A stretch of 10,598 bases of DNA from an uncultured Anaerolineales bacterium (GTDB taxonomy: Bacteria; Chloroflexota; Anaerolineae; Anaerolineales; CAYZNA01): contig CAYZNA010000013.1 of the NCBI GenBank assembly GCA_964478665.1, positions 5,923 through 16,520 of the forward strand. Reading direction: 5' to 3'. Positions within the stretch are counted from its first letter, which is position 1. Every line of letters starts with the position of its first letter. A program made the position numbers and the translations under genes. Under the pieces are notes generated by a model. The model was not told the origin of the DNA and did not search any database. It saw nothing but the letters and a program-made list of their open reading frames with translations. Below are positions 1 through 10,598 of the stretch, piece after piece.

Positions 1-807
1 GAATACGCCGAGAATTACCTGAAAAATCCGCACGACTATTGGAAATACATGGGGTTGTTCAGCGGCTACATCGAAAGCATCGTCAATGCCGGCAAGCCGG
101 TGATCGCCCGGCTGAACGGGATGGCGGTCGGCGGCGGGAACGAGTCGCAACTGGCCTGCGATCTGTCCATCATCGCCGAGCATGCCTATATCAAGCAGGT
201 GGGCACCAGCGTGGGCAGCGTGGCCGCCGGAGGTTCCACCCAGTGGCTGCCACTTTTCGTGGGAGACCGGCGGGCGCGCTACATCCTGATGACCAACCGC
301 CCCATCCTGCCCTACCAGGCGCTGGAATGGGGACTGGTCAACCAGGTTGCGCCCTCGGTAACAAAAGACGGCGAGTTCATCACCCACGCCACGCCGGAGC
401 AGATCAAGAAAGCGCAAAAGGGCGATGAAGGCTACGCCATCAGCCTGGCGAAGCTGGACGAGGCCGTGCAGGCCCTGGCCGGCGAACTGATTGACAAGTT
501 CCCGGAGTGTATGCGCTACACCAAGCAGCAGGTTAACTTTTTCAAGGACCTCGCCTGGCACAGCACCATCGGCCACGCCCGCGACTGGCTTTCGATCCAC
601 TTCGCCACGTGGGAGCCGCTGGAGGGCATGAGCGCCTTCGTGGAGAAGCGGCGGGCCAACCCCACCCGCCTGCGCGAGCTGGCCGCTGCCGGCAAGTCAT
701 CGGAGTTTCCGTGGGGGCCGTACAGCCAGGAGTGCCCGAGTTGCGGTGCGAAGAGCCTGCCCGGTGAGTTCCAGTTCTGCGGCCAGTGCGGAGCAAAGTT
801 GGGATGA
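1..807 (+). CDS. Crotonase-fold (enoyl-CoA hydratase/isomerase superfamily) C-C bond hydrolase, MenB/BadI/Oah(BamA)-like. 5'-truncated at the window edge. Carries a C-terminal zinc-ribbon extension.
   Basis: Frame 1 is open from nt 1 (EYAENYLKNPHDYWKYMGLF...), so the ATG at 49 is internal. The crotonase oxyanion-hole motif is present (ARLNGMAVGGGNESQLACDLSIIAE). The segment MSAFVEKRRANP matches the canonical C-terminal end of MenB-type enzymes (cf. ...EGRNAFNQKRQPDF in MenB, from memory). The GLVNQV motif resembles the MenB GLVNTV. About 45 further residues follow, ending ECPSCGAKSLPGEFQFCGQCGAKLG. Stop is TGA at 805-807. GC3 is high. Confidence 0.85.
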   Translation, partial: EYAENYLKNPHDYWKYMGLFSGYIESIVNAGKPVIARLNGMAVGGGNESQLACDLSIIAEHAYIKQVGTSVGSVAAGGSTQWLPLFVGDRRARYILMTNRPILPYQALEWGLVNQVAPSVTKDGEFITHATPEQIKKAQKGDEGYAISLAKLDEAVQALAGELIDKFPECMRYTKQQVNFFKDLAWHSTIGHARDWLSIHFATWEPLEGMSAFVEKRRANPTRLRELAAAGKSSEFPWGPYSQECPSCGAKSLPGEFQFCGQCGAKLG

Positions 808-873
808 TTCGTGGGGTGCGAGGCGCGCGCTTTTGCGGCGCACGCCTCGCACCCCACGCCAGAGGAGGAAACA

Positions 874-2040
874 ATGAGCGTGGAAACATTCCCCGAATGG
901 CGCGACCAGCCGCTGGATGAGATGCTCTACCAGGTGCGGGAAATGCTGGAAGACACCACCTTCCCCACCGTGCAGCGCTGGCGAGCGGCCGGCGGCAAGG
1001 TGGTCGGGCACTTCCAGGTTTACTTCCCGGAAGAGATCGTGCATGCGGCCGGCCTGTTGCCCTTCAAAGTGCGTGGTGCGCAGGTTGAAGCCATGCGGGC
1101 CGACTCGCGCTTCGGCTCGTACCTGTGCTCCATTCTCAAAACCTCGCTGGAGTTGGCGCTGAGCGACCGGGTAAAGATGGAGATGTTTGTCACCCACCCG
1201 ATCTGCGACGCCGCCCGCAATCTGGGCGCGGTGTGGGGCCGCAACTTCCCCTATCCCTGCCAGATCCTGTACCTGCCGCAAAACGCCAATTCCAGCCACG
1301 CCGTCACCTACCTGCGCGGCGAATATGACCGGCTGCGGCGGGGCGTGGAAACCATCGTCGGGCGGCCGGTCTCCGATGATGACCTGCGTTCTTCGTTGGG
1401 GGTGTACAACCAGAACCGGGCGCTGCTGCGCGAGCTGTACGACATCAAACGCGCCGAGCCGTGGCTGGTCACGGCCGATGAAGCCTACGTGCTGACCGCC
1501 ATCGGCGGCGTGCTCCCACGCGAGGAGCACAACCAGCTGCTGCAGGCGGCGCTGCCCGGGTTGCGCGCCCGCGACACCAGGCCGCAGGACAAGGTGCGGG
1601 TGGTGTTCGAGGGCGGCTTCTGCGAGCAGCCGCCGCTGGACCTGATCCGCGCGGTGGGGCGCTCGTGCTACGTGGTGGACGACGACCTGATGATCGGCCT
1701 GCGCTGGATTCTGGAGGACGTGGCGCTGGACGGCGACCCGCTCCACAACCTGGCCCACGCCTATCTGGAACAATCCAGCTATAGCCCGGTGCAGCACGAC
1801 CTGCGCAAGCCCAAGGAGAAGATGCTGCTCGAGCGCATCGAGTCGTCCGGGGCGCAGGCGGCCATCATCACCGCGGCCAAGTTGTGCGAGCCGGGGCTGG
1901 AAGAGCAGGTGGCCTACACGCGCGCGCTGGACGAAGAGGGCGTGCCCTACTTCGTCAGCGAGTTCGAGGAGAACATGACCAGCTTCGACCACCTCGAGAT
2001 CCAGTTGGAGACGTTTGTGGAGAACATCTTGTTTGTCTAG
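874..2040 (+). CDS. Class I benzoyl-CoA reductase / 2-hydroxyacyl-CoA dehydratase family, HgdAB-like Fe-S subunit. The smaller of the two; BcrC/BzdN/BadD-like by size and order.
   Basis: ATG at 874 is preceded by AGGAGG (863-868) with a 5-nt spacer. The ORF-track start at 811 is a GTG upstream of the Shine-Dalgarno site. The 388-aa product has conserved Cys-containing segments (HPICDAARNLG, YPCQILY, FEGGFCEQPP, RSCYVVDDD, AAKLCEPG) typical of HGD-D/BcrB-BcrC family subunits. It sits immediately upstream of a paralogous subunit and two activase-type ATPases. Confidence 0.85.
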   Translation: MSVETFPEWRDQPLDEMLYQVREMLEDTTFPTVQRWRAAGGKVVGHFQVYFPEEIVHAAGLLPFKVRGAQVEAMRADSRFGSYLCSILKTSLELALSDRVKMEMFVTHPICDAARNLGAVWGRNFPYPCQILYLPQNANSSHAVTYLRGEYDRLRRGVETIVGRPVSDDDLRSSLGVYNQNRALLRELYDIKRAEPWLVTADEAYVLTAIGGVLPREEHNQLLQAALPGLRARDTRPQDKVRVVFEGGFCEQPPLDLIRAVGRSCYVVDDDLMIGLRWILEDVALDGDPLHNLAHAYLEQSSYSPVQHDLRKPKEKMLLERIESSGAQAAIITAAKLCEPGLEEQVAYTRALDEEGVPYFVSEFEENMTSFDHLEIQLETFVENILFV

Positions 2041-2103
2041 GGAACCGGGCTATCCCCCGCTGGCCAGCAAACGTCGGCGAGGGATAAGGAAAGGGAGCGT
2101 ACA

Positions 2104-3402
2104 ATGACACAAACACAACTTACCGACGGGATCGTTGGGCGCGGCAACCGCGACGGGGCGCAACTGTTCCGCGACTGGTTCAGCGAGTTGACCCGGGTGG
2201 CGGAAGCCGGCGGCCAGGCGGCCTATGTTTTCGTGATGGGCAGCATGAACGAGGTGCTGAAGACCTTTGATATGCCGGTGGTCTTCCCCGAGATCAACTC
2301 GCTGCAAACCGCCGTTCGCCGCGTGGCCCACGAATACTTGAACGAGGCTGAGGACTACGGCTACTCCCCCGACATCTGCGGCTACGTGAAGGCAGATGTG
2401 GCCGTGCAGCTCCGCCAGGGCAAGCACCCGATGGGCCGCATCCCGAAGCCCAGCCTGGCCGTGCTGACCAACGCCTGCAATACCTACATCAAGTGGGCGG
2501 AGATCTGGGAGCGGATGTACCACATCCCCATCTTTACCCTGGACGTGCCCGGCACCCGCATGGCCGGCGGTCAGACCTGGGCCGGCAACGCGGACTTTGA
2601 GAACGACCGCGCCTACGTGGCCGCACAGCTCAAGGAATTGATCGGGGTGTGCGAGCAGGTCACCGGCAAGAAGTTTGACATTGATAAGTTGCGCGAAGTG
2701 CTGGGGCACGCCAACACCATGAGCCGGGGCTGGAAGCGCGCGCTGGATCTGAACCAGAGCCGGCCCTCGCTATTCAACGCCCTGACCGATGGCACAATTT
2801 ACCTGGGCGTAGCCAACGGCTTCCGCGGCACGCCGGCGGGCGCCAGGTACTTCGACGAACTTGTACAAGAGATGGAATACAAGGCGGCCCACGCCATCGG
2901 CACGCTGACCGACGAAAAGTACCGCCTGATCTTTGTGGGCGTGCCCTGCTACCCCATTTTTCGGCGCTTCAACGAACTGTTCACCGAATGGGGCGGCACG
3001 TTCGTCAACTCCACTTACCTCTGGTTCGCCGCTGGCGGCACCAACCTCGGTTTTGAATACGACGTGAATCGCCCCATGGGTAGTCTGGCGAAGGGCGTGC
3101 TGAGCAGTGTGCGCGATGCAATGGACAGCATGTTTTACCAGGACAGCATCCTGACGAAAATGGTGGACGATTACCACGTGTACGGGGTGGTATATCACCC
3201 GATCAAGAGCTGCCGCACGGTCTCAACCGGCCTGGCCGACAACCGGCGCGCCCTGATGGCCGCCCGCGACGTTCCCAGCCTGTTCATCGAGTCCGACATG
3301 ATGGATCGGCGGGTGGTCTCCGAGGCACAGCTCAAGAACCGGGCGGACGCGTTCTTTGAGGGGTTAGCCACGCGCAAGATGCTGGAGAAGCGCGGGGCGT
3401 GA
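2104..3402 (+). CDS. Class I benzoyl-CoA reductase / 2-hydroxyacyl-CoA dehydratase family, HgdAB-like subunit. The larger of the two; BcrB/BzdO/BadE-like by size and order.
   Basis: ATG at 2104 is preceded by aaGGAaaGGGAGcg. The 432-aa product has Cys-containing segments (DICGYVKAD, TNACNTYIKW, GVPCYPIF, IKSCRTVSTG) and overall resembles the HgdA/BcrB-type component. It follows the previous gene after a 63-nt gap and precedes the two ATPase genes. Confidence 0.85.
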   Translation: MTQTQLTDGIVGRGNRDGAQLFRDWFSELTRVAEAGGQAAYVFVMGSMNEVLKTFDMPVVFPEINSLQTAVRRVAHEYLNEAEDYGYSPDICGYVKADVAVQLRQGKHPMGRIPKPSLAVLTNACNTYIKWAEIWERMYHIPIFTLDVPGTRMAGGQTWAGNADFENDRAYVAAQLKELIGVCEQVTGKKFDIDKLREVLGHANTMSRGWKRALDLNQSRPSLFNALTDGTIYLGVANGFRGTPAGARYFDELVQEMEYKAAHAIGTLTDEKYRLIFVGVPCYPIFRRFNELFTEWGGTFVNSTYLWFAAGGTNLGFEYDVNRPMGSLAKGVLSSVRDAMDSMFYQDSILTKMVDDYHVYGVVYHPIKSCRTVSTGLADNRRALMAARDVPSLFIESDMMDRRVVSEAQLKNRADAFFEGLATRKMLEKRGA

Positions 3403-3461
3403 GGTGAGCGGGTCGCGCATCGCAGGGCCAGTCACGTGTTGTTTGACAAAGGAGGGATACC

Positions 3462-4277
3462 ATGGCATACGCAGCCGGAGTAGACGTAGGGTCCACCCAG
3501 ACCAAAGCGATTATCATCAACGAAAAGCAGCACATCGTGGGCCGGTCGCTGACCGACACCGGCGCCAACGTGGTCGCCGCTGCCCAAAAGGCCTACGAGC
3601 TGGCGCTGGCCGACGCCGGCCTGGAGGAGCGAGAGGTGGAATACGTGGTCGGCACCGGCTATGGCCGCTACCGCGTCACCTTTGGCAACACCCAGGTCAC
3701 CGAGATCAGTTGCCACGGGCGGGGGTCGGTACACATGTTCCCCGATACGCGCACGGTGGTGGACATGGGCGGGCAAGATACCAAAGCGATTCGGGTGAAC
3801 GCCCGCGGCGAAATCCTGGATGTCTGCATGAATGACAAGTGCGCCGCCGGGACCGGCCGCTTCCTGGGGGCGGCCTCGGACGCGCTGGACATCCCGCTCG
3901 GGGAGCTGGGAGCGGTGGCCCTGCGGGCCGAGCGCCCGGTGAGGATCAGCACCACCTGCACGGTGTTCGCCGAGTCGGAGGTGCTCTCCTGGCTGGGCAA
4001 GGGCAAGAAAATCGAAGACATCTTGCAGGGCGTGCACCAGTCCATCGCGCAGCGCTCTATCGGCCTGTTGCGCCGGGTGGGGATCGAGTCCCAGGTTACG
4101 TTTACCGGCGGCGTCGCCAGAAACATCGGCATGATCGCCGCGCTGAATCACGGCATGGGGTTGCAGGTGAACGTCAGCGAGGAATCGCACTATATGGGCG
4201 CGTTGGGGGCCGCCCTGTTTGCCCTCGATCACATCCTGGCCCGTCGCAGCCCGGCCGGCGCGCCTGCAGCAGCCTGA
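3462..4277 (+). CDS. BadF/BadG/BcrA/BcrD-family ATPase (HgdC-like electron-activating ATPase subunit), copy 1
   Basis: ATG at 3462 is preceded by AGGAGGG (3450-3456). The N-terminal ASKHA phosphate-1 motif is [11 protein letters not shown]. Two conserved Cys sit in [13 protein letters not shown] and [12 protein letters not shown], the positions that ligate the inter-subunit [4Fe-4S] cluster in HgdC-type ATPases. Length is 271 aa. Confidence 0.9.
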
Positions 4278-4319
4278 CCGTGCGGCGCCATCACCCCAGG
4301 CGGAGAGGGAAACACTACG

Positions 4320-5162
4320 ATGTATACCACGGGAATTGACGTTGGATCAACCTACACCAAAGCGCTCGTCTTGAGTGAGGACAATCAAATCGTTGGCCGG
4401 GCGATCTCCAGCACCGGCTTCAAGCTGGCGGAGGTCGCCCGGCGGGTGTACGAGCAGGCGCTGGCGCAGGCTGGGTTAGATGCCAGCGACGTGGGCTATG
4501 TGGTCTCGACCGGCTTTGGCCGGCACATGGTCCCCTTCAGCGACGTGTCCGTGACCGACCTGACCGCCAGCGCGCGCGGCGCAGCCTTCCTCTTTCCCGA
4601 GACGCGCACCATTCTGGACGTGGGCGGGCAGACCATGAAGGCCAGCCGGCTGGATGGCCGGGCAAAGGTAAAATCGTTCCGGCTCAACGACAAGTGCGCC
4701 GCCGGCACCGGGGCTTTTCTGGAGAAGACCGCGCGCTATATGGGCTATTCGACCGAGGAGATCGGCCCGCTGGTAGCCACCTCCAAAGAAGTGGTGCCCA
4801 TCTCGGGCGTGTGCGCCGTGTTCGCCGAGTCGGAAGTGATCAACCACCTCTCGATGGGCAGCTCCCCCGCCGACATCATGCACGGGGCCATTGCCTCGCT
4901 GGTGGACCGCTCGGTGCAACTGATGAGGCGCGTGCAAATGGAGCCGGAGTTCACCCTGATCGGCGGCATTTTGCGCTTTGAGACCATGGCCCGCGTGGTG
5001 AGGCAGAACCTGAAGACCGAGGTAAACGTGCCGCAGGGCGACATGGTGCAGTTCACCTCCGCCCTGGGCGCAGCGATCCTGGGCCACCAGCGCCTGCGCA
5101 GGCTGGCCCCGTCGGGGGAGGGCAGCAAGACCGAAGGCGAGATGGCGGCGGTTGAGGCCTGA
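4320..5162 (+). CDS. BadF/BadG/BcrA/BcrD-family ATPase (HgdC-like), copy 2, a distinct paralog of copy 1
   Basis: ATG at 4320 is preceded by GGAGAGGGA (4302-4310). It has [24 protein letters not shown] and SGVCAVFAESEV, the same motif set as the upstream ATPase but clearly diverged. Length is 280 aa. Two different small ATPases in tandem fit the alpha/delta heterodimer of Bzd/Bad-type reductases. Confidence 0.9.
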   Translation: MYTTGIDVGSTYTKALVLSEDNQIVGRAISSTGFKLAEVARRVYEQALAQAGLDASDVGYVVSTGFGRHMVPFSDVSVTDLTASARGAAFLFPETRTILDVGGQTMKASRLDGRAKVKSFRLNDKCAAGTGAFLEKTARYMGYSTEEIGPLVATSKEVVPISGVCAVFAESEVINHLSMGSSPADIMHGAIASLVDRSVQLMRRVQMEPEFTLIGGILRFETMARVVRQNLKTEVNVPQGDMVQFTSALGAAILGHQRLRRLAPSGEGSKTEGEMAAVEA

Positions 5163-5176
5163 GCCGGATCGGGGAG

Positions 5177-5210
5177 CGCGCCGGGGCCACAAAGCAAGAA
5201 GAACCCGGCG
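5177..5210 (+). other. Intergenic imperfect hairpin downstream of the second ATPase gene
   Basis: GCGCCGGG (5177-5184) and CCCGGCGC (5203-5210) form an 8-bp stem around an 18-nt A-rich loop. It starts 15 nt after the stop at 5162 and is followed by a C10 tract, not a T-tract. Confidence 0.3.
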
Positions 5211-5220
5211 CCCCCCCCCC
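5211..5220. repeat. Homopolymeric C10 tract (G10 on the minus strand) in an intergenic region
   Basis: cccccccccc at 5211-5220, directly read. It lies 20 nt upstream of the ATG of the small ORF at 5241. Confidence 0.9.
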
Positions 5221-5240
5221 ACGATCCCCGGCGAGGAATA

Positions 5241-5543
5241 ATGACTGAAAGTGACGCCCGCCCAACTCCCGCTCTCGATTGGCTGGAAGCCTCCGCCCGC
5301 CGCGTGCTGACGGAGGACCAGCTTGCTCCCGATCCGGCCTTGCTGGCCGAGGGCTGGGAGCGCCGCTTTGTGGCCGACGCCCGGCGGGCGAAGGAAGCCA
5401 TTGAGCTGTACCAGCAACTGGGCTTTGAGGTACGGGCCGAGCCGCTGCGCCCTACCGATCTGGGCGACGATTGCGAAGACTGCAAGCTGGTCGTGGTCTT
5501 TCAGTTCCAGACCATCTATACCCGCCGGAAGCGCGAAGCGTGA
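5241..5543 (+). CDS. Small hypothetical protein (100 aa), no recognisable domain
   Basis: ATG at 5241 with GAGGA three nt upstream, which is a short spacer. Third-position GC is strongly biased as in neighbouring genes and there are no internal stops. It sits between the reductase and VOC genes on the same strand. The sequence (…EAIELYQQLGFEVRAEPLRP…DDCEDCKLVVVFQFQ…) is not recognised. Confidence 0.5.
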   Translation: MTESDARPTPALDWLEASARRVLTEDQLAPDPALLAEGWERRFVADARRAKEAIELYQQLGFEVRAEPLRPTDLGDDCEDCKLVVVFQFQTIYTRRKREA

Positions 5544-5570
5544 GCACCGGACCACACAGGAACAGAATCT

Positions 5571-6026
5571 ATGGACTACATTCGCCGCATCCAGCGCGTC
5601 GCCCTCGCGGTAGAGGACCTTGACCAGGCGCAGGCTTTCTTTGAGAACTGGTTCGGGGCGCAGTTCCTGCCGGAGGAAAACATCAGCGATATGGGCATTC
5701 GCTACCGGCCGTTTAACGTGGGCGAGAGCATGATGGAACTGTTGCAGGCCACCCGCGAGGATAGCCCGGTAGCGCGATTCCTGCGGCAACGCGGCGGGCC
5801 GGGGGTGCACCACATCACCTTTGAGGTAGAAGACCTGGACGCCGCCATCGCCGAACTGGAGCGGCGCGGCGGGCGCATCGCATACCGTCATACTTACGCC
5901 CCCGGCGTCACGTTCGAGGGCAAGTACTGGCGGGAAGCCTTCATTCACCCGAGGGACGCCTTTGGCGTGCTGATCCACCTGGCGGAGACCAGGCCGGTAG
6001 ACCCCCGGCCGGACCCCAATCACTGA
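5571..6026 (+). CDS. VOC (glyoxalase/bleomycin-resistance/dioxygenase) superfamily protein, methylmalonyl-CoA-epimerase-like
   Basis: ATG at 5571 with AGGAA nine nt upstream. The 151-aa product has RVALAVEDLDQAQAFF near the N-terminus and GVHHITFEVEDLDAAIAELERRGG in the second half, the paired beta-alpha-beta-beta-beta module signature typical of methylmalonyl-CoA epimerase/glyoxalase-I-like proteins. Confidence 0.75.
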   Translation: MDYIRRIQRVALAVEDLDQAQAFFENWFGAQFLPEENISDMGIRYRPFNVGESMMELLQATREDSPVARFLRQRGGPGVHHITFEVEDLDAAIAELERRGGRIAYRHTYAPGVTFEGKYWREAFIHPRDAFGVLIHLAETRPVDPRPDPNH

Positions 6027-6052: not shown

Positions 6053-6601
6053 ATGAACACTACCGATCCCGTTGCCTTCTTGCTGTCCGAGCACCGCCGC
6101 ATCATGGCAGCGGTAGATGCAGTCCGGCGCGCCCTGCCCGATCTGCGCTCCCCGGAAGATTTCCGGCGCCACCTGCCGGCTTTGTTGGCCTTCGGCGATG
6201 CGCTGACCTACGACATTCCGGCCCACGCTGGCAAGGAAGACGACATCTTCTTCCCGCCCATCGAGGCCATCATTGGCCGTGAGGGCGGGCCGACCGGCGT
6301 GATGCGCGCAGAGCACAAAGAAATCCACGCCGCCGCGCTCAAGCTGAGTGAAGTGATCCGCGAGTTGAACACGGTGGAACACCCGGCCATCCTGGCCGGC
6401 ACGCAGGCCTACGAGGCGCAGATCCGGGCGGTGCAGGCCGGCGCGGGAGACCTGGCGGCCTTCGTGGCCCACACCCACGAACTGATAGACCTGCTGGACC
6501 GCCACTTTGGCAAGGAAGAGCAGGTGCTGTTTCCCATGTACAACCAACTGGTGGAACCATCGGTTCGCGCGGAGGTGGCCCGGCGCATGGCCGGGCGATA
6601 G
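6053..6601 (+). CDS. Hemerythrin (HHE cation-binding) domain protein
   Basis: It starts with LLSEHRRIMAAVDAV and has two HHE-type motifs: HAGKEDDIFFPPIE and HFGKEEQVLFPMY (H-x2-KEE-x2-LFP). Length is 182 aa. TAG stop at 6599-6601 is followed immediately by a GC hairpin. Confidence 0.75.
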   Translation: MNTTDPVAFLLSEHRRIMAAVDAVRRALPDLRSPEDFRRHLPALLAFGDALTYDIPAHAGKEDDIFFPPIEAIIGREGGPTGVMRAEHKEIHAAALKLSEVIRELNTVEHPAILAGTQAYEAQIRAVQAGAGDLAAFVAHTHELIDLLDRHFGKEEQVLFPMYNQLVEPSVRAEVARRMAGR

Positions 6602-6630: not shown

Positions 6631-7644
6631 TTACGTCTTCTTCTCCTCTTTCAAGGACAGCACGCGCGCCCAGCGATCCAGGGCAATGGCATAGGTCTTG
6701 TTGATGGGCAGGTGCGTGGCGCGCATCTCGTCCAGCAGATCCAGCTTCTTGTTGCCCACCGTCACCATGGCGCGCAGGTCCAGCCCGCCGTCGGCGCGGC
6801 GCGCCATGCTCAGCCAGGTCACTTTTGCCTCGCCGCCGTTCAGCAGTGCGTGCTTTGCCTCCTGCTTGCACAGGTCGTAAAACTGCGTCTGGCGGGTGAA
6901 GATGTAGGGCGGCGCGTGGTCATCTGCTGCGACGAAGTAAAAGCGAAGCCCCTGGCGCGCCGCGGCCTGCGCGGCGAGGACGTACCCCATCCAGTAGGCC
7001 ACGCCCAGGTAGACCTCCAGCACTTCTCTCATCCCGATCTCGACGACCGGCGCCGTGAATGGCAGGCCTAGCTGGGACGCCAGCTCGCGCAGCAGGCTCG
7101 GATAGCCCACCAGCGCCAGCGGGGCCAGCAGCCCGGCCACCACGCTGAAACTGATCGGGCTCCACGCGCGGCCGATCGCGCGCATTAGCCCGATGAGCGC
7201 GCGCGGCACGTCAGGCCCGTCCAGCCCGCGCGCAATGGCGCGCACGGCTTGCTGCACGCGTCGCGTCGCGCGCGCGCTCCACTCGTCAAACGCCGCCAGG
7301 AAGGCGAATATCAGCCCCAGGAAGGCAATCGCCAACCCGCCGCTTATCCCCCAGACCCCATCGGCCCGGACGAAGAACAGCAACCCCACGAACCAGCCGA
7401 GCAGCAGGGTCAGCGCGCCCGGCAGCAACCCGCGCAACTCGCCCATCAGCACCTCCGGGGTCAGCCGGTTCAGCACGCCCCTGTGCCACTCCTGCCACTG
7501 CCGGTTCTGCGAGTGACAGCGCACGCAGACGGTCTCGTTCTCCGGCAGCGGTTCGCGGCAGGCAATGCAGGCCACGCTGCGCGGCACGACCGGCGGCGTC
7601 TCAGGGGCAGCGGCCCCGGCGGTCTCAGCGGGCATCGTGGACAT
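6631..7644 (-). CDS. Polytopic membrane protein with N-terminal zinc ribbon (CxxC-x11-CxxC) and a ~100-aa C-terminal soluble domain. Function unknown.
   Basis: ATG at 7644 (MSTMPAET…) is preceded on the minus strand by GAGGAG with a 6-nt spacer. The ORF-track start at 7797 would overlap the upstream gene by about 170 nt. Zinc ribbon is CIACREPLPENETVCVRCHS. At least four hydrophobic helices follow (LLPGALTLLLGWFVGLLFFV, GISGGLAIAFLGLIFAFLAAF, VVAGLLAPLALVGY, VYLGVAYWMGYVLAA). The hydrophilic C-terminus ends KEEKKT. Confidence 0.65.
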   Translation of the reverse strand: MSTMPAETAGAAAPETPPVVPRSVACIACREPLPENETVCVRCHSQNRQWQEWHRGVLNRLTPEVLMGELRGLLPGALTLLLGWFVGLLFFVRADGVWGISGGLAIAFLGLIFAFLAAFDEWSARATRRVQQAVRAIARGLDGPDVPRALIGLMRAIGRAWSPISFSVVAGLLAPLALVGYPSLLRELASQLGLPFTAPVVEIGMREVLEVYLGVAYWMGYVLAAQAAARQGLRFYFVAADDHAPPYIFTRQTQFYDLCKQEAKHALLNGGEAKVTWLSMARRADGGLDLRAMVTVGNKKLDLLDEMRATHLPINKTYAIALDRWARVLSLKEEKKT

Positions 7645-8353
7645 CGGCAGGCTCCTCAACTCTAGTCCTGAAAAGTCGCAGCGCGTCGCCCGCGGCAGGC
7701 GCGTTGCCCGATCCGGGGGCCGGGGCCGCTGGCCGGGCGCCGGTTGCCAGTCCGGGCGCGGGAGCGCCTGTCGCGCCCGGCGCCCCGTGCTGGCCATCGG
7801 CCCAGTCGCGCAGCAGGGCGAGGCGACGCCACAGCCGGCTCAGGGTCGGGCTTCCGTCCAGATTGTGCAACAAGTCCAGCCCGGAGGTGCACACTCGAGA
7901 GACGCACAGCCAGTGGCTGGTCTGAGCGTAAGCAACCGCCAGCCCGCACAGGCTGGCGGCCTGCAGCGGGTCAGCGTGGAAAGAAGCGCGAAAGCTGCTG
8001 GCGCTCCGCTCGTAGGCGCGCACGGCCAGGTCTGACTTCTGCTCCACGCAATGGCAACCTCCGGCATACCCGTGGAGCATGCCCTGCACAACGGTCGGCA
8101 CCAGATGATCCACGCGGTTGCTGCGGACCGTCTCCATCGCCTGCAGCCCGTGCGTCACCCGAACAAGCGCGCCGGCCCAATCGCGCCGATTCCAATCCGT
8201 GCGGGTCTGCTCGACGTAGCGCACGAGCGCCGGCTCACCCTGCAACGCCCGCCGCACTTGCTCGCTGCAGTCCCACAGCAGCAGTTGGAGCGTGTCCACG
8301 ACCTCCACAGCGATGTCCGAGAGCACGAGCGGTTCACGCAGATCAGCAAGCAT
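7625..8353 (-). CDS. Hypothetical, predicted alpha-helical soluble protein with a Pro/Ala/Gly-rich low-complexity C-terminal tail
   Basis: ATG at 8353 (MLADLREPLVL…) is preceded on the minus strand by GGAGGA with an 8-nt spacer. The longer ORF-track start at 8473 would overlap the upstream gene's 3' end. The tail reads GAPGATGAPAPGLATGARPAAPAPGSGNAPAAG. It overlaps the downstream gene start by 20 nt (7625-7644). No recognisable domain. Confidence 0.55.
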   Translation of the reverse strand: MLADLREPLVLSDIAVEVVDTLQLLLWDCSEQVRRALQGEPALVRYVEQTRTDWNRRDWAGALVRVTHGLQAMETVRSNRVDHLVPTVVQGMLHGYAGGCHCVEQKSDLAVRAYERSASSFRASFHADPLQAASLCGLAVAYAQTSHWLCVSRVCTSGLDLLHNLDGSPTLSRLWRRLALLRDWADGQHGAPGATGAPAPGLATGARPAAPAPGSGNAPAAGDALRLFRTRVEEPADVHDAR

Positions 8354-8408: not shown

Positions 8409-10598
8409 TCATGTCGTCTGCCCGGCGCCGGCGTCCTCGCCGGCCGGCGGCGGTTCGGCCGCCATCTCCCCACGCGCAGGCGCAGCGGGGAGGATCTGCT
8501 CTCTGGCGAGGAAGGCCGCCAGGGCCTCGATCTTTGAAAGGTCGCTGAAAGCGGCCAGGCGCACGAGCATCTCCATCAGCCCCTTGTCCTCAAGGATCTG
8601 CGGATCCGCCTGGCCCAGCACCGCAAGCAACTGCCGCAGGTACTCCACGCGCGCCAGCGCCTCGCCGCGGCCGGTGATAGCCTTCGCTTCGGCCTTGCCA
8701 CGCGCACGATCCACGTCCGCGTGAGCCATCAATTGGGCCAGTTCGGCCTGCATCCCCGCGCGGATGCGCTCTGCCTCCATTTCGGCCTCCACCTCCGCAC
8801 CTCTTGCTTGTTTGAGCAAGCCGGCGACATCGCGGGCAGCTTCGAGCTCGCGCTTGCGGTCGGCCAGTCTGACCGCTTCCTTCGCCGACTCTTTCCAGGC
8901 GTCGGTCCTGGCGTGTTCCACTTCCGCCCAGCGGCGCCATTGAATATCCCAGATTTGCAGCAGCCGCTCACTCACATCGCGGGGCATGCGCAGTTCGTCG
9001 AGCGTGACGCGCACTACCTCCACCCCCCAGCGCTGCGCCAGCCGGTCCAGCCGGCGTTGAAGTTCGAACTGCAGCGGTGCGCGCGGGGAAAGCTGCCCGT
9101 CCATCACCGTGCTGCGCGGGTCGAAGATCAGCTCCAGATAGCGGGCGGAGATCGCCTCGCGCAGGGCGGCGCGGGCCGCCTGCTCGGTCTGCTGGCGCCA
9201 GTCGGCCGCGTTCAACGCGGCCCGGCGCAGCACGTCATCCTCCAATACGTAGCGGCCCTCGGTTACCAGTGCGGCCTCGTCCTGCATGATGCGGTATTGG
9301 ATGGAGAACTTCACCTTCAGCGGCACGCCCTCGCGGGAGTAGACCGTTTCCTCGCTCTGGTCAATGGCCTGCGTTTGCAGGCGCAGATCGAACACTGCCC
9401 GCAGCGCCTCACCGAACTGGGTGACCACCATGCCCGGCCCGGATACCCGCGAGACTTGCCCAAAGCGCTCGAACACGCCGGCGCTGGCTCCGGTAAGCAG
9501 CACCAGCCCCGGTCCCGGCAGGCGCAGCGGCCCGCTGCCCTGCAAGGCGCCGTCCACCACCTGCTGAAAGGCGCTAAACCACGGGTTGCGTGGCCACACT
9601 GCGGCCATCATGGCGCCAAACAGGCGGCGCCGGCCCTCCGCCCGATCCACCGCGTGCCAGTCGGCCAGCACGCCGGCGGCCAGCCACCACGCGGCCAGGG
9701 CGGAGCCGGCCAGCGCGGTCAGCGCCAGCAGCGCCGCCAGCACAGCGCGGCGGGTGCGCGCGGGGCGCGCCGTTTGCGGGAGCGGAATCGCGCCCACTTC
9801 CGCCACGTAGGCCCCCTCCTTCGTGGCCACCAGCAGGCGGCCGCGCGCCGCGTCCACAATCAGCAGCCTGCCATCCAGGCCCAGCGCCAGAGAAGTGGGG
9901 GTAAACGGCCCGCGCAGATCGCTGATCTGACGCAGATACCTGCCGTCGGCGCCGAACACTGCCACCCGGCGGTGTCCGCTGTCGGCCACAAAGGCCGTCC
10001 CCTGCCAGTCCACCGCCACATCCGTGGGATACGATAGCTGGGCCTCCGGCGGGGCATCTTTGAGCGGCAGCGTGGTGGTGAGGGTGCGCGTGACCGGCTC
10101 GAACACCCAGATGACATTGCTGAGTGGGTCAGCCAGATGGAGTTGGCCGCTTTCGGGGTAAATGCCCAGCCCGCCGGGGGAAACGAAGACGTGGGGGGTG
10201 TCGTCGCCCCTGTCACCCAGGCCGGTCACAGCCCCATCGGGCTTGATGATCTGCACCCGCCGGTTCTCGGCGTCGGCGACGTAAAGGTTGCCTTGCCTGT
10301 CTTCCAGCGCGTCAGTGGGTGAGCGGAACTGCTTCAGGGCGGCGCCAACCTCACCCAGCGGCTCAATTGTGGCGCCGTCGTCGAACAGACGAAACAGGCG
10401 GTGCTGTCCCGGGTCGGTGACAATCAGGTGCTCGTGTGCCTGCCAGTCGTCGCCGTCGCGCTTCGGGGCAAGGAACAGGCCGTCCGGCTGCACCAGCTCA
10501 CCCCGCATCCACTCGTTCACTGGTTGCAGTGTCCTGTCGAGCACCACTACCCGATGCGCCAGCAGGTCCCCCACGTACACCTTCTCATCGGAGGCGGC
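8409..10598 (-). CDS. Fusion protein: NHL-repeat beta-propeller + single TM helix + SPFH/band-7 (flotillin/stomatin/prohibitin-like) domain with E/A-rich coiled coil. 5' end outside the window.
   Basis: The frame stays open beyond 10598 (…AASDEK VYVGDLLAHR), so the gene is 5'-partial. NHL blades: GNLYVADAENRRVQIIKPDG, TAFVADSGHRRVAVFGADGRYL, LLIVDAARGRLLVATKEG, LHLADPLSNVIWVF. TM is RRAVLAALLALTALAGSALAAWWLAAGVLA (about 9665-9752). SPFH core is VFERFGQVSRVSGPGMVV…LKVKFSIQYRI. A flotillin-like E/A/R-rich coiled coil follows (RKRELEAARDVAGLLKQARGAEVEAEMEAERIRAGMQAELAQL). Stop TGA (revcomp) at 8409-8411. Confidence 0.85.
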   Translation of the reverse strand, partial: AASDEKVYVGDLLAHRVVVLDRTLQPVNEWMRGELVQPDGLFLAPKRDGDDWQAHEHLIVTDPGQHRLFRLFDDGATIEPLGEVGAALKQFRSPTDALEDRQGNLYVADAENRRVQIIKPDGAVTGLGDRGDDTPHVFVSPGGLGIYPESGQLHLADPLSNVIWVFEPVTRTLTTTLPLKDAPPEAQLSYPTDVAVDWQGTAFVADSGHRRVAVFGADGRYLRQISDLRGPFTPTSLALGLDGRLLIVDAARGRLLVATKEGAYVAEVGAIPLPQTARPARTRRAVLAALLALTALAGSALAAWWLAAGVLADWHAVDRAEGRRRLFGAMMAAVWPRNPWFSAFQQVVDGALQGSGPLRLPGPGLVLLTGASAGVFERFGQVSRVSGPGMVVTQFGEALRAVFDLRLQTQAIDQSEETVYSREGVPLKVKFSIQYRIMQDEAALVTEGRYVLEDDVLRRAALNAADWRQQTEQAARAALREAISARYLELIFDPRSTVMDGQLSPRAPLQFELQRRLDRLAQRWGVEVVRVTLDELRMPRDVSERLLQIWDIQWRRWAEVEHARTDAWKESAKEAVRLADRKRELEAARDVAGLLKQARGAEVEAEMEAERIRAGMQAELAQLMAHADVDRARGKAEAKAITGRGEALARVEYLRQLLAVLGQADPQILEDKGLMEMLVRLAAFSDLSKIEALAAFLAREQILPAAPARGEMAAEPPPAGEDAGAGQTT

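Follow-up and report, generated by a model that had tools for sequence, protein, structure and literature searches.

Can one protein carry an NHL beta-propeller on one side of a membrane and an SPFH scaffold on the other, and what would such a protein be? The question is raised by a window of 10,598 nucleotides (the whole stretch of DNA analyzed here, from contig CAYZNA010000013.1 of an uncultured Anaerolineales bacterium), in which an initial annotation had read the minus-strand open reading frame (ORF) at 8409 to 10598 as a single chain of NHL propeller, transmembrane (TM) helix, and SPFH domain. For most bacterial SPFH proteins the cage structure is now better known than the physiological role, which is still unclear (PMC12005517, PMC12624060). 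A binding module across the membrane from the SPFH domain would be an experimental handle on what such a cage organizes, and the identities of the propeller ligand and of the partner could show whether cage assembly answers outside cues.

The single chain is borne out by the translation, in which minus-strand positions 8409 to 10598 form one unbroken frame of 729 sense codons closed by a TGA stop at 8409 to 8411, and by Pfam, with both domains above their cut-offs. Band_7 (PF01145) matches residues 373 to 547 (E = 1.7e-16, 61.2 bits against a cut-off of 23.6) and NHL (PF01436) matches with 48.5 bits against a cut-off of 20 (E = 6.4e-13). A further match, to SGL (PF08450; residues 54 to 242), is marginal at 28.4 bits against 26.3 and overlaps the NHL matches. 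Upstream of these codons the window has no stop, and the frame runs off the window edge with its 5' end cut, as the initial annotation had described. An NCBI protein, MBI4769570.1 (P0225), consists of exactly the same 729 residues at 100% identity and is named [quoted passage not shown] a lactonase-family name that misses half the protein. Since this entry, itself partial, has exactly the residues seen in the window, the window edge is most likely the contig edge, and the N terminus lies beyond the record. A second copy of the same protein, P0001, is a 721-amino-acid call starting at an internal GTG. Profile scans of genome and metagenome contig collections, made with a two-sequence alignment, found no relative, and an exact look-up of P0001 gave no contig. 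An antisense ORF on the plus strand, 8721 to 10037, was rejected as a real gene and is the usual high-GC shadow of the strongly conserved minus-strand ORF.

Residues 1 to 270 (9789 to 10598, minus strand, as for all features of this protein) are assigned to a six-bladed NHL beta-propeller, predicted to be extracytoplasmic. The window protein was modeled as a monomer with AlphaFold2 (AF2) from a 5-sequence alignment, giving a mean predicted local distance difference test (pLDDT) score of 68.7. The propeller stands mostly at 80 to 95 in that model, with 22 beta-strands within residues 1 to 268. A Foldseek search against the PDB returned the six-bladed NHL domains of TRIM71 and TRIM2 (E of about 1e-16, target-normalized TM-score [TMt] of 0.77 to 0.78), designed Pizza6 proteins (TMt up to 0.84), and the extracellular sensor domain of PknD (1rwl, TMt 0.78), the NHL alignments spanning 260 to 273 columns. 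Six "hhxD" blade motifs can be read, ending at D11, D62, D109, D157, D206, and D249, and essentially the whole six-bladed propeller is present in the window. The Pfam score, the six motifs, and the Foldseek matches together uphold the earlier assignment to the six-bladed NHL type.

The visible protein contains a single strong hydrophobic segment, residues 285 to 303 or 311, with a Kyte-Doolittle value of 2.17. This TM helix (residues 285 to 311; 9666 to 9746), which links the propeller to the SPFH domain, lies within a modeled helix of 36 residues (279 to 314), and a hydrophobic segment is aligned at the same position in all five homologues, the window protein included. It is followed by a short W/F-rich helix of moderate hydrophobicity, residues 319 to 333 (LFGAMMAAVWPRNPW; 9600 to 9644), modeled at low pLDDT; the region is alignable in all five homologues with few invariant positions, and the helix possibly lies on the membrane surface. 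The SPFH or Band_7 core spans residues ~344 to 547 (8958 to 9569), the model showing an alpha/beta core at 344 to 537. Beyond it, AF2 places two long A/R/E-rich helices, residues 540 to 598 and 605 to 664 (8607 to 8981), which in the model occupy the place of CC1 and CC2 in SPFH cage proteins. Residues 540 to 664 are 21% A, 14% R, and 13% E. The initial annotation had described a long, E/A-rich, flotillin-like coiled coil; the composition agrees roughly, whereas the flotillin likeness did not hold (FloT, 11 bits against 700). A C-terminal tail, residues 665 to 729 (8412 to 8606), is weakly conserved and is modeled as short helices followed by a disordered A/P/E/G-rich end, with pLDDT below 50 from residue 703.

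The architecture recurs beyond this locus. An exhaustive HMMER search with residues 276 to 729 (the TM and SPFH part) against 1.84 billion representatives at 50% identity gave 446 relatives at E <= 1e-3, 18 of them at E <= 1e-30. NHL and Band_7 were both found by Pfam in P0002 (844 amino acids), P0077 (933 amino acids), P0078 (877 amino acids), and the distant P0094 (775 amino acids), so that the same domain order, sought elsewhere, was met in four further clusters and stands in five 50%-identity clusters with the window protein. These four proteins are 25 to 44% identical to the window protein and can be aligned with it over propeller, junction, TM helix, and SPFH core alike. In principle, separate NHL and SPFH genes could have been fused here by a frameshift, a missed stop, or a chimeric assembly, the source being a metagenome-assembled genome (MAG) in which the gene is truncated by the contig end. 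However, the four homologues come from independent assemblies (JGI, Logan, ENA, and NCBI), and of the nine proteins in the P0078 cluster, which stem from several samples, seven are full length (877 amino acids). Because the same order is seen in independent assemblies at such identities, a frameshift or chimera is effectively excluded, and we regard an artifact as extremely improbable. The NHL-TM-SPFH fusion is, by these alignments, a genuine, conserved, and rare architecture, occurring in uncultured Chloroflexota and related metagenomes. The initial annotation had not recognized it from characterized proteins, and our full-text literature searches likewise found no paper joining SPFH or Band_7 with NHL and no characterized protein of this combination.

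What precedes the propeller in the intact protein has to be read from its relatives. All four full-length homologues carry 2 to 3 hydrophobic helices ahead of the propeller. P0002 has only 76 residues ahead of the first position of the window protein, which suggests that the latter lacks roughly 60 to 100 residues, comprising the N-terminal anchor and probably one beta-strand. Since the homologues have TM helices before the propeller, the intact protein would be polytopic, with TM helices on both sides of a propeller that is inserted in a loop between them rather than led by a signal peptide. The initial annotation had placed the propeller ahead of a single TM helix; the propeller stood (residues 1 to 270), and the single pass did not. 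The signal peptide from which it had hoped to settle the topology is not expected, as the propeller appears to be inserted in the last external loop of a 3- to 4-TM anchor.

This design is easier to understand from the subfamily to which the SPFH part belongs, which is divergent, unnamed, and by profile closest to stomatin and QmcA. Prokaryotic SPFH proteins had been divided into 12 subfamilies, SPFH1 to SPFH12, of which 6 to 12 are small and undocumented (Hinderhofer et al. 2009, PMC2636767). A profile of 42 subfamily members matched PH stomatin at 4.4e-17, QmcA at 7.3e-15, HflC at 1e-8, and HflK at 1e-5, and also matched the solved prohibitin and erlin; the QmcA match runs across both the SPFH domain and the coiled coil, reaching the two long helices. 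Such matches to solved SPFH proteins, together with the Band_7 score, confirm the SPFH assignment. The design of the subfamily was surveyed on the 150 representatives listed among the 446. A usual member has 400 to 530 amino acids and 3 to 4 TM helices in its first 100 to 140 residues, and its SPFH core begins about 30 residues past the last TM helix. The earlier statement that SPFH proteins normally have a short anchor is therefore incomplete, because the anchor in this subfamily is usually one of 3 to 4 TM helices and the propeller is an insertion in its last external loop. Most other members have this anchor only, unlike the window protein with its propeller, and the NHL version was seen in only 5 of the 150. 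The loop before the last TM helix measures 277 to 318 residues in the NHL versions and 130 to 140 residues in P0079, P0098, and P0161. In P0161 it consists of an NBR1-type Ig-like domain (PF16158, E = 1.3e-10), and P0186 has an N-terminal EAD7 (effector-associated domain) in place of the loop domain. Four such members, P0083, P0085, P0161, and P0186, share the SPFH core and the TM-proximal region with the window protein (E of 1e-55 to 1e-10). As NHL, Ig-like, and EAD7 variants are found around the same TM-SPFH core, the accessory domains are exchangeable, and the subfamily swaps them around a constant core. An SPFH subfamily of 446 representatives at 50% identity is hereby defined, having a polytopic anchor, loop domains that can be swapped, and a partner other than NfeD.

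Two loci of the subfamily gave side observations. In the P0161 locus (L007, 200 to 6619; NCBI GCA_040961345.1), a second SPFH gene of 436 amino acids precedes and overlaps that of P0161, which is followed by a 431-amino-acid protein with a Pfam GrpE match and then a 665-amino-acid protein made up, by eye, mostly of pentapeptide-like repeats. The operon is thus built differently although its SPFH protein belongs to the same subfamily. On the contig of P0186 (JGI 3300075153) the flanking genes, encoding 483 and 354 amino acids, are unannotated. Through the EAD7 of P0186, the subfamily connects with the terms in which Kaur et al. 2020 describe conflict systems.

On which side of the membrane does the propeller lie? 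The positive-inside rule holds that basic residues mark the side of the cytoplasmic loops. Among the homologues, a strongly basic loop (RARR, RSQRLER, KEHRWQR, and RVERLRR) comes just ahead of the last N-terminal TM helix, K and R are missing from the segment that leads into the propeller in three of four, the flank before the propeller-to-SPFH TM helix has 0 to 1 K/R in four of the five proteins, and the ~35 residues after that helix have 2 to 6 R/K, counted by eye. This distribution indicates a propeller outside the cell and an SPFH domain in the cytoplasm. The charges flanking the TM helix of the window protein itself are ambiguous, with RPARTRR before it and RAEGRRR after it, and for this reason we rate the topology as likely and below certain. 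The affinity to stomatin and QmcA agrees with a cytoplasmic SPFH domain, as QmcA/YbbK faces the cytoplasm, whereas HflK and HflC face the periplasm (PMC2636767; PMC13086221). The placement of propeller and SPFH domain on opposite sides of the membrane, put forward in the initial annotation, is thus very probably right. What appears to be new here is an SPFH scaffold with a propeller, predicted to be extracytoplasmic, inserted in a polytopic anchor; novelty of mechanism is not implied.

Among known systems, stomatin/QmcA (YbbK), the SPFH1 group of Hinderhofer et al. 2009 that includes Pyrococcus PH1511 and the E. coli QmcA-YbbJ cage, is the closest by profile. Its members, too, place a cytoplasm-facing SPFH domain and long helices behind a membrane anchor, and their genes share an operon with that of a membrane partner. 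They differ in having a single N-terminal anchor, no ectodomain, and an NfeD partner, whereas the window protein appears to be polytopic, with a 270-amino-acid propeller in an external loop, and has no NfeD. PknD of Mycobacterium tuberculosis offers the other half of the comparison, an external six-bladed NHL propeller, a TM helix, and a cytoplasmic output (1rwl and 1rwi, TMt 0.74 to 0.78 over ~260 columns). In PknD the output is a Ser/Thr kinase and the propeller is C-terminal; here the output would be an SPFH domain and TM helices flank the propeller. The window protein contains no kinase domain, which sets it apart from PknD-type NHL sensor kinases. HflK and HflC (SPFH3), which work with FtsH, share with it the SPFH core and CC helices, weak TIGR01933 and TIGR01932 matches, and the concept of a cage organizing a membrane-protein client, but their SPFH part is periplasmic and they cross the membrane with one TM helix only. 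Identity with HflK/HflC was rejected at 20.2 to 21.8 bits against the HflK cut-off of 159.4, and no hflC-like paralogue, second SPFH gene, or ftsH was found within the window. Flotillins of the FloT/FloA/YqiK type (SPFH2) also continue from the SPFH domain into an A/E-rich helical region; that of the window protein is much shorter, and there is no hairpin anchor. FloT itself (NF058507) was rejected, the match covering residues 577 to 650 only (E = 0.16), and ScyF (NF035926) was left behind at 71.6 bits against 350. No curated NCBIfam SPFH cut-off was reached by the window protein.

Two further genes follow on the minus strand. The first (gene 2; 7625 to 8353, ATG at 8353 preceded by GGAGGA) encodes a 242-amino-acid helical, weakly TPR-like protein whose TPR_12 match (E = 0.005) is below the Pfam threshold; searches of the PDB, Pfam, and PADLOC with it gave nothing significant. 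The second (gene 3; 6631 to 7644, ATG at 7644 preceded by GAGGAG) encodes a 337-amino-acid polytopic membrane protein identical to the NCBI call P0235. It carries a CxxC...CxxC zinc ribbon at its N terminus and ~4 TM helices, and its C-terminal ~100 amino acids form a conserved domain. It has no Pfam, PADLOC, or PDB relative, and its AF2 model (pLDDT 47.8) was too poor for a fold search. The start of gene 3 overlaps the end of gene 2 by 20 nucleotides. All three genes are closely spaced or overlapping, with ribosome-binding sites before genes 2 and 3 and no promoter-like or terminator-like site between them, which weakly supports an operon. In Pfam, NfeD was matched by neither downstream protein, and an NfeD-type operon was rejected.

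The initial annotation had raised the question of whether the two downstream genes co-occur with the fusion, and the answer differs between them. The P0077 and P0078 genes are each followed directly by a homologue of gene 3 (E = 6e-37 and E = 8e-33, respectively), that of P0078 encoding 318 amino acids, and one lies downstream of the gene for P0083, a 526-amino-acid member without a propeller (E = 1e-12 in the C-terminal region, 6e-6 in the zinc ribbon). Gene 2, on the other hand, co-occurs only in the P0078 loci, L003 and L004, where a homologue follows the P0078 gene (E = 7e-10), and is absent from L001 and L006. Hidden Markov models of genes 2 and 3 found no counterpart of either in L005 or L007. 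Since a Zn-ribbon homologue stands beside the propeller-less P0083, the Zn-ribbon partner goes with the SPFH subfamily generally and not with the NHL fusion specifically.

The upstream side of these loci gave an observation of its own. In the P0002, P0077, and P0078 loci (L001, 6159 to 7565; L003, 6411 to 7817; and the P0002 contig), the NHL-SPFH gene has an MgsA/RarA-type AAA ATPase gene upstream of it in divergent orientation; the corresponding side lies beyond the contig end here. Other neighbors shared in those loci are DUF4397, His_Phos_1, DUF3090, and an ABC transporter, and this neighborhood probably reflects synteny within the lineage and no functional link.

How might such a protein work? 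Solved SPFH complexes (HflK/C, QmcA-YbbJ, flotillin, stomatin, prohibitin, and erlin) are all rings or domes against the membrane, and the subunit number tracks CC1 length according to y = 0.1782x + 10.22 (PMC12624060). In the reading that we favor, at somewhat better than an even chance, the window protein is a polytopic, inner-membrane, stomatin/QmcA-like SPFH scaffold that displays propellers outside, forms a cytoplasmic ring or dome, and has the Zn-ribbon protein as client or co-scaffold. The 2 to 3 N-terminal TM helices would come first, after which the chain would exit the cell and fold into the NHL propeller, then re-enter via the TM helix at 285 to 311 and place the SPFH domain and the two long helices in the cytoplasm. 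By analogy with the solved complexes, this cytoplasmic part would form an oligomeric ring or dome against the inner side of the membrane; the modeled CC1 of 59 residues would give ~21 subunits by the above relation, a rough extrapolation from a moderate-confidence model. Some 20 subunits would carry a matching ring of ~20 propellers on the outer face. Since the propeller resembles binding-type NHL modules such as PknD, a binding role is favored, and each propeller may bind an envelope or external protein or glycan, as the PknD sensor domain suggests. Such binding, multivalent in the ring, would position, gate, or regulate the microdomain. The Zn-ribbon protein would be the enclosed client or a co-scaffold, in place of the NfeD or FtsH found elsewhere. 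The coupling of ligand binding to microdomain organization suggested in the initial annotation is plausible, though purely inferential. A bolder version, to which we give a low probability, would make the subfamily a class of transmembrane "receptor cages," SPFH domes wired to exchangeable external sensors, in which the ligand controls assembly or opening of the dome around the Zn-ribbon partner. If that were true, SPFH microdomains would be signal transducers and not passive scaffolds.

Several points weigh against the favored scaffold. The topology was obtained by applying the positive-inside rule by hand to sequences, and the four arginines of RPARTRR would, alone, favor a cytoplasmic side for the propeller. 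The window protein's own N terminus is unseen. Only a monomer was modeled, the cage being expected from solved SPFH complexes, and the AF2 model, made from a 5-sequence alignment, reaches no more than moderate confidence over the SPFH domain and the helices (pLDDT 50 to 80). The Zn-ribbon partner is undetectable in the P0094 locus, whose downstream genes differ, and on the contig of P0002, the closest full-length homologue (JGI 3300075153), the fusion gene is followed by those for a 185-amino-acid unannotated protein and a 950-amino-acid CHAT (caspase-like) protease. The SGL match, small as its margin is, also counts here.

One alternative is an inverted, HflK/C-like topology, with the SPFH dome outside and a cytoplasmic propeller binding an intracellular protein or RNA as eukaryotic TRIM-NHL proteins do. 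The position of RPARTRR, just before the TM helix on the propeller side, would fit this, the sole NCBIfam SPFH matches are the sub-threshold ones to the periplasm-facing HflK and HflC (PMC2636767), and cytoplasmic TRIM-NHL domains are what the propeller matches best in structure. However, RAEGRRR follows the TM helix of the window protein, and in the four homologues K/R residues cluster ahead of the last N-terminal TM helix and past the final one, leaving 0 to 1 at the flanks of the propeller. The family profile, moreover, places stomatin and QmcA (1e-17 to 1e-15) far ahead of HflK/C (1e-8 to 1e-5), and we hold an inverted topology to be improbable. About equally doubtful is a propeller that acts as an extracytoplasmic enzyme, an SMP-30/gluconolactonase-like or arylesterase-like lactonase or a lyase, with the SPFH part only localizing or stabilizing it. 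The NCBI name and the SGL match point toward such an enzyme, and P0094 matches SGL at 44.6 bits as well as Lactonase and Arylesterase. Six-bladed propeller families, which form a clan in Pfam, routinely cross-match one another. In the window protein the NHL repeat model outscores SGL, the structures matched best belong to binding modules (TRIM-NHL and PknD), and the invariant columns of the five aligned homologues look like repeated NHL structural positions (hhxD, N-x-R, P, and G) and not like metal ligands of the central tunnel.

A more distant alternative takes the locus for a conflict, defense, or programmed-death module, in which the SPFH part would be a superstructure-forming effector or membrane perturber triggered by the external propeller. 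Kaur et al. 2020 count Band7-like domains among scaffolding "effector-position" domains and describe EAD7 as recruiting effectors (PMC7159879). Also in its favor are the N-terminal EAD7 of the subfamily member P0186, the CHAT protease two genes downstream of P0002, and the pentapeptide-repeat protein in the P0161 locus. Yet PADLOC-DB 2.0 contained no match at E <= 0.1 for the three operon proteins, and no NTPase, vWA, MoxR, STAND, or EAD was found beside the window gene or in L001, L003, and L005. The neighbors in the related loci are of a housekeeping kind (MgsA/RarA, an ABC transporter, and a HAD hydrolase), and the synteny looks chromosomal rather than that of a variable island. We consider a conflict role less probable than either an inverted scaffold or an enzyme.

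Further genes of the window lie on the plus strand and read toward the putative SPFH operon. A gene for a hemerythrin HHE-domain protein (6053 to 6601, E = 1.6e-19) is convergent with the operon and ends 30 nucleotides from it. Ahead of it, at 49 to 6026, is a cluster like an ATP-dependent benzoyl-CoA reductase or 2-hydroxyacyl-CoA dehydratase system, with two HGD-D subunits (811 to 2040 and 2104 to 3402), two BcrAD_BadFG ATPases (3462 to 4277 and 4320 to 5162), an enoyl-CoA hydratase-like protein (49 to 807), and a glyoxalase/epimerase-like protein (5571 to 6026). Such a cluster points to an anaerobic metabolism of acyl-CoA or aromatic compounds in the Chloroflexota MAG. Its enoyl-CoA hydratase-like ORF matches only positions 83 to 178 of the 251-position ECH_1 model and may be cut by the window start. 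The same ORF ends in a CxxC...CxxC zinc-ribbon tail with sub-threshold matches to DZR, Zn_ribbon, and DUF7577, which is unusual for the crotonase family.

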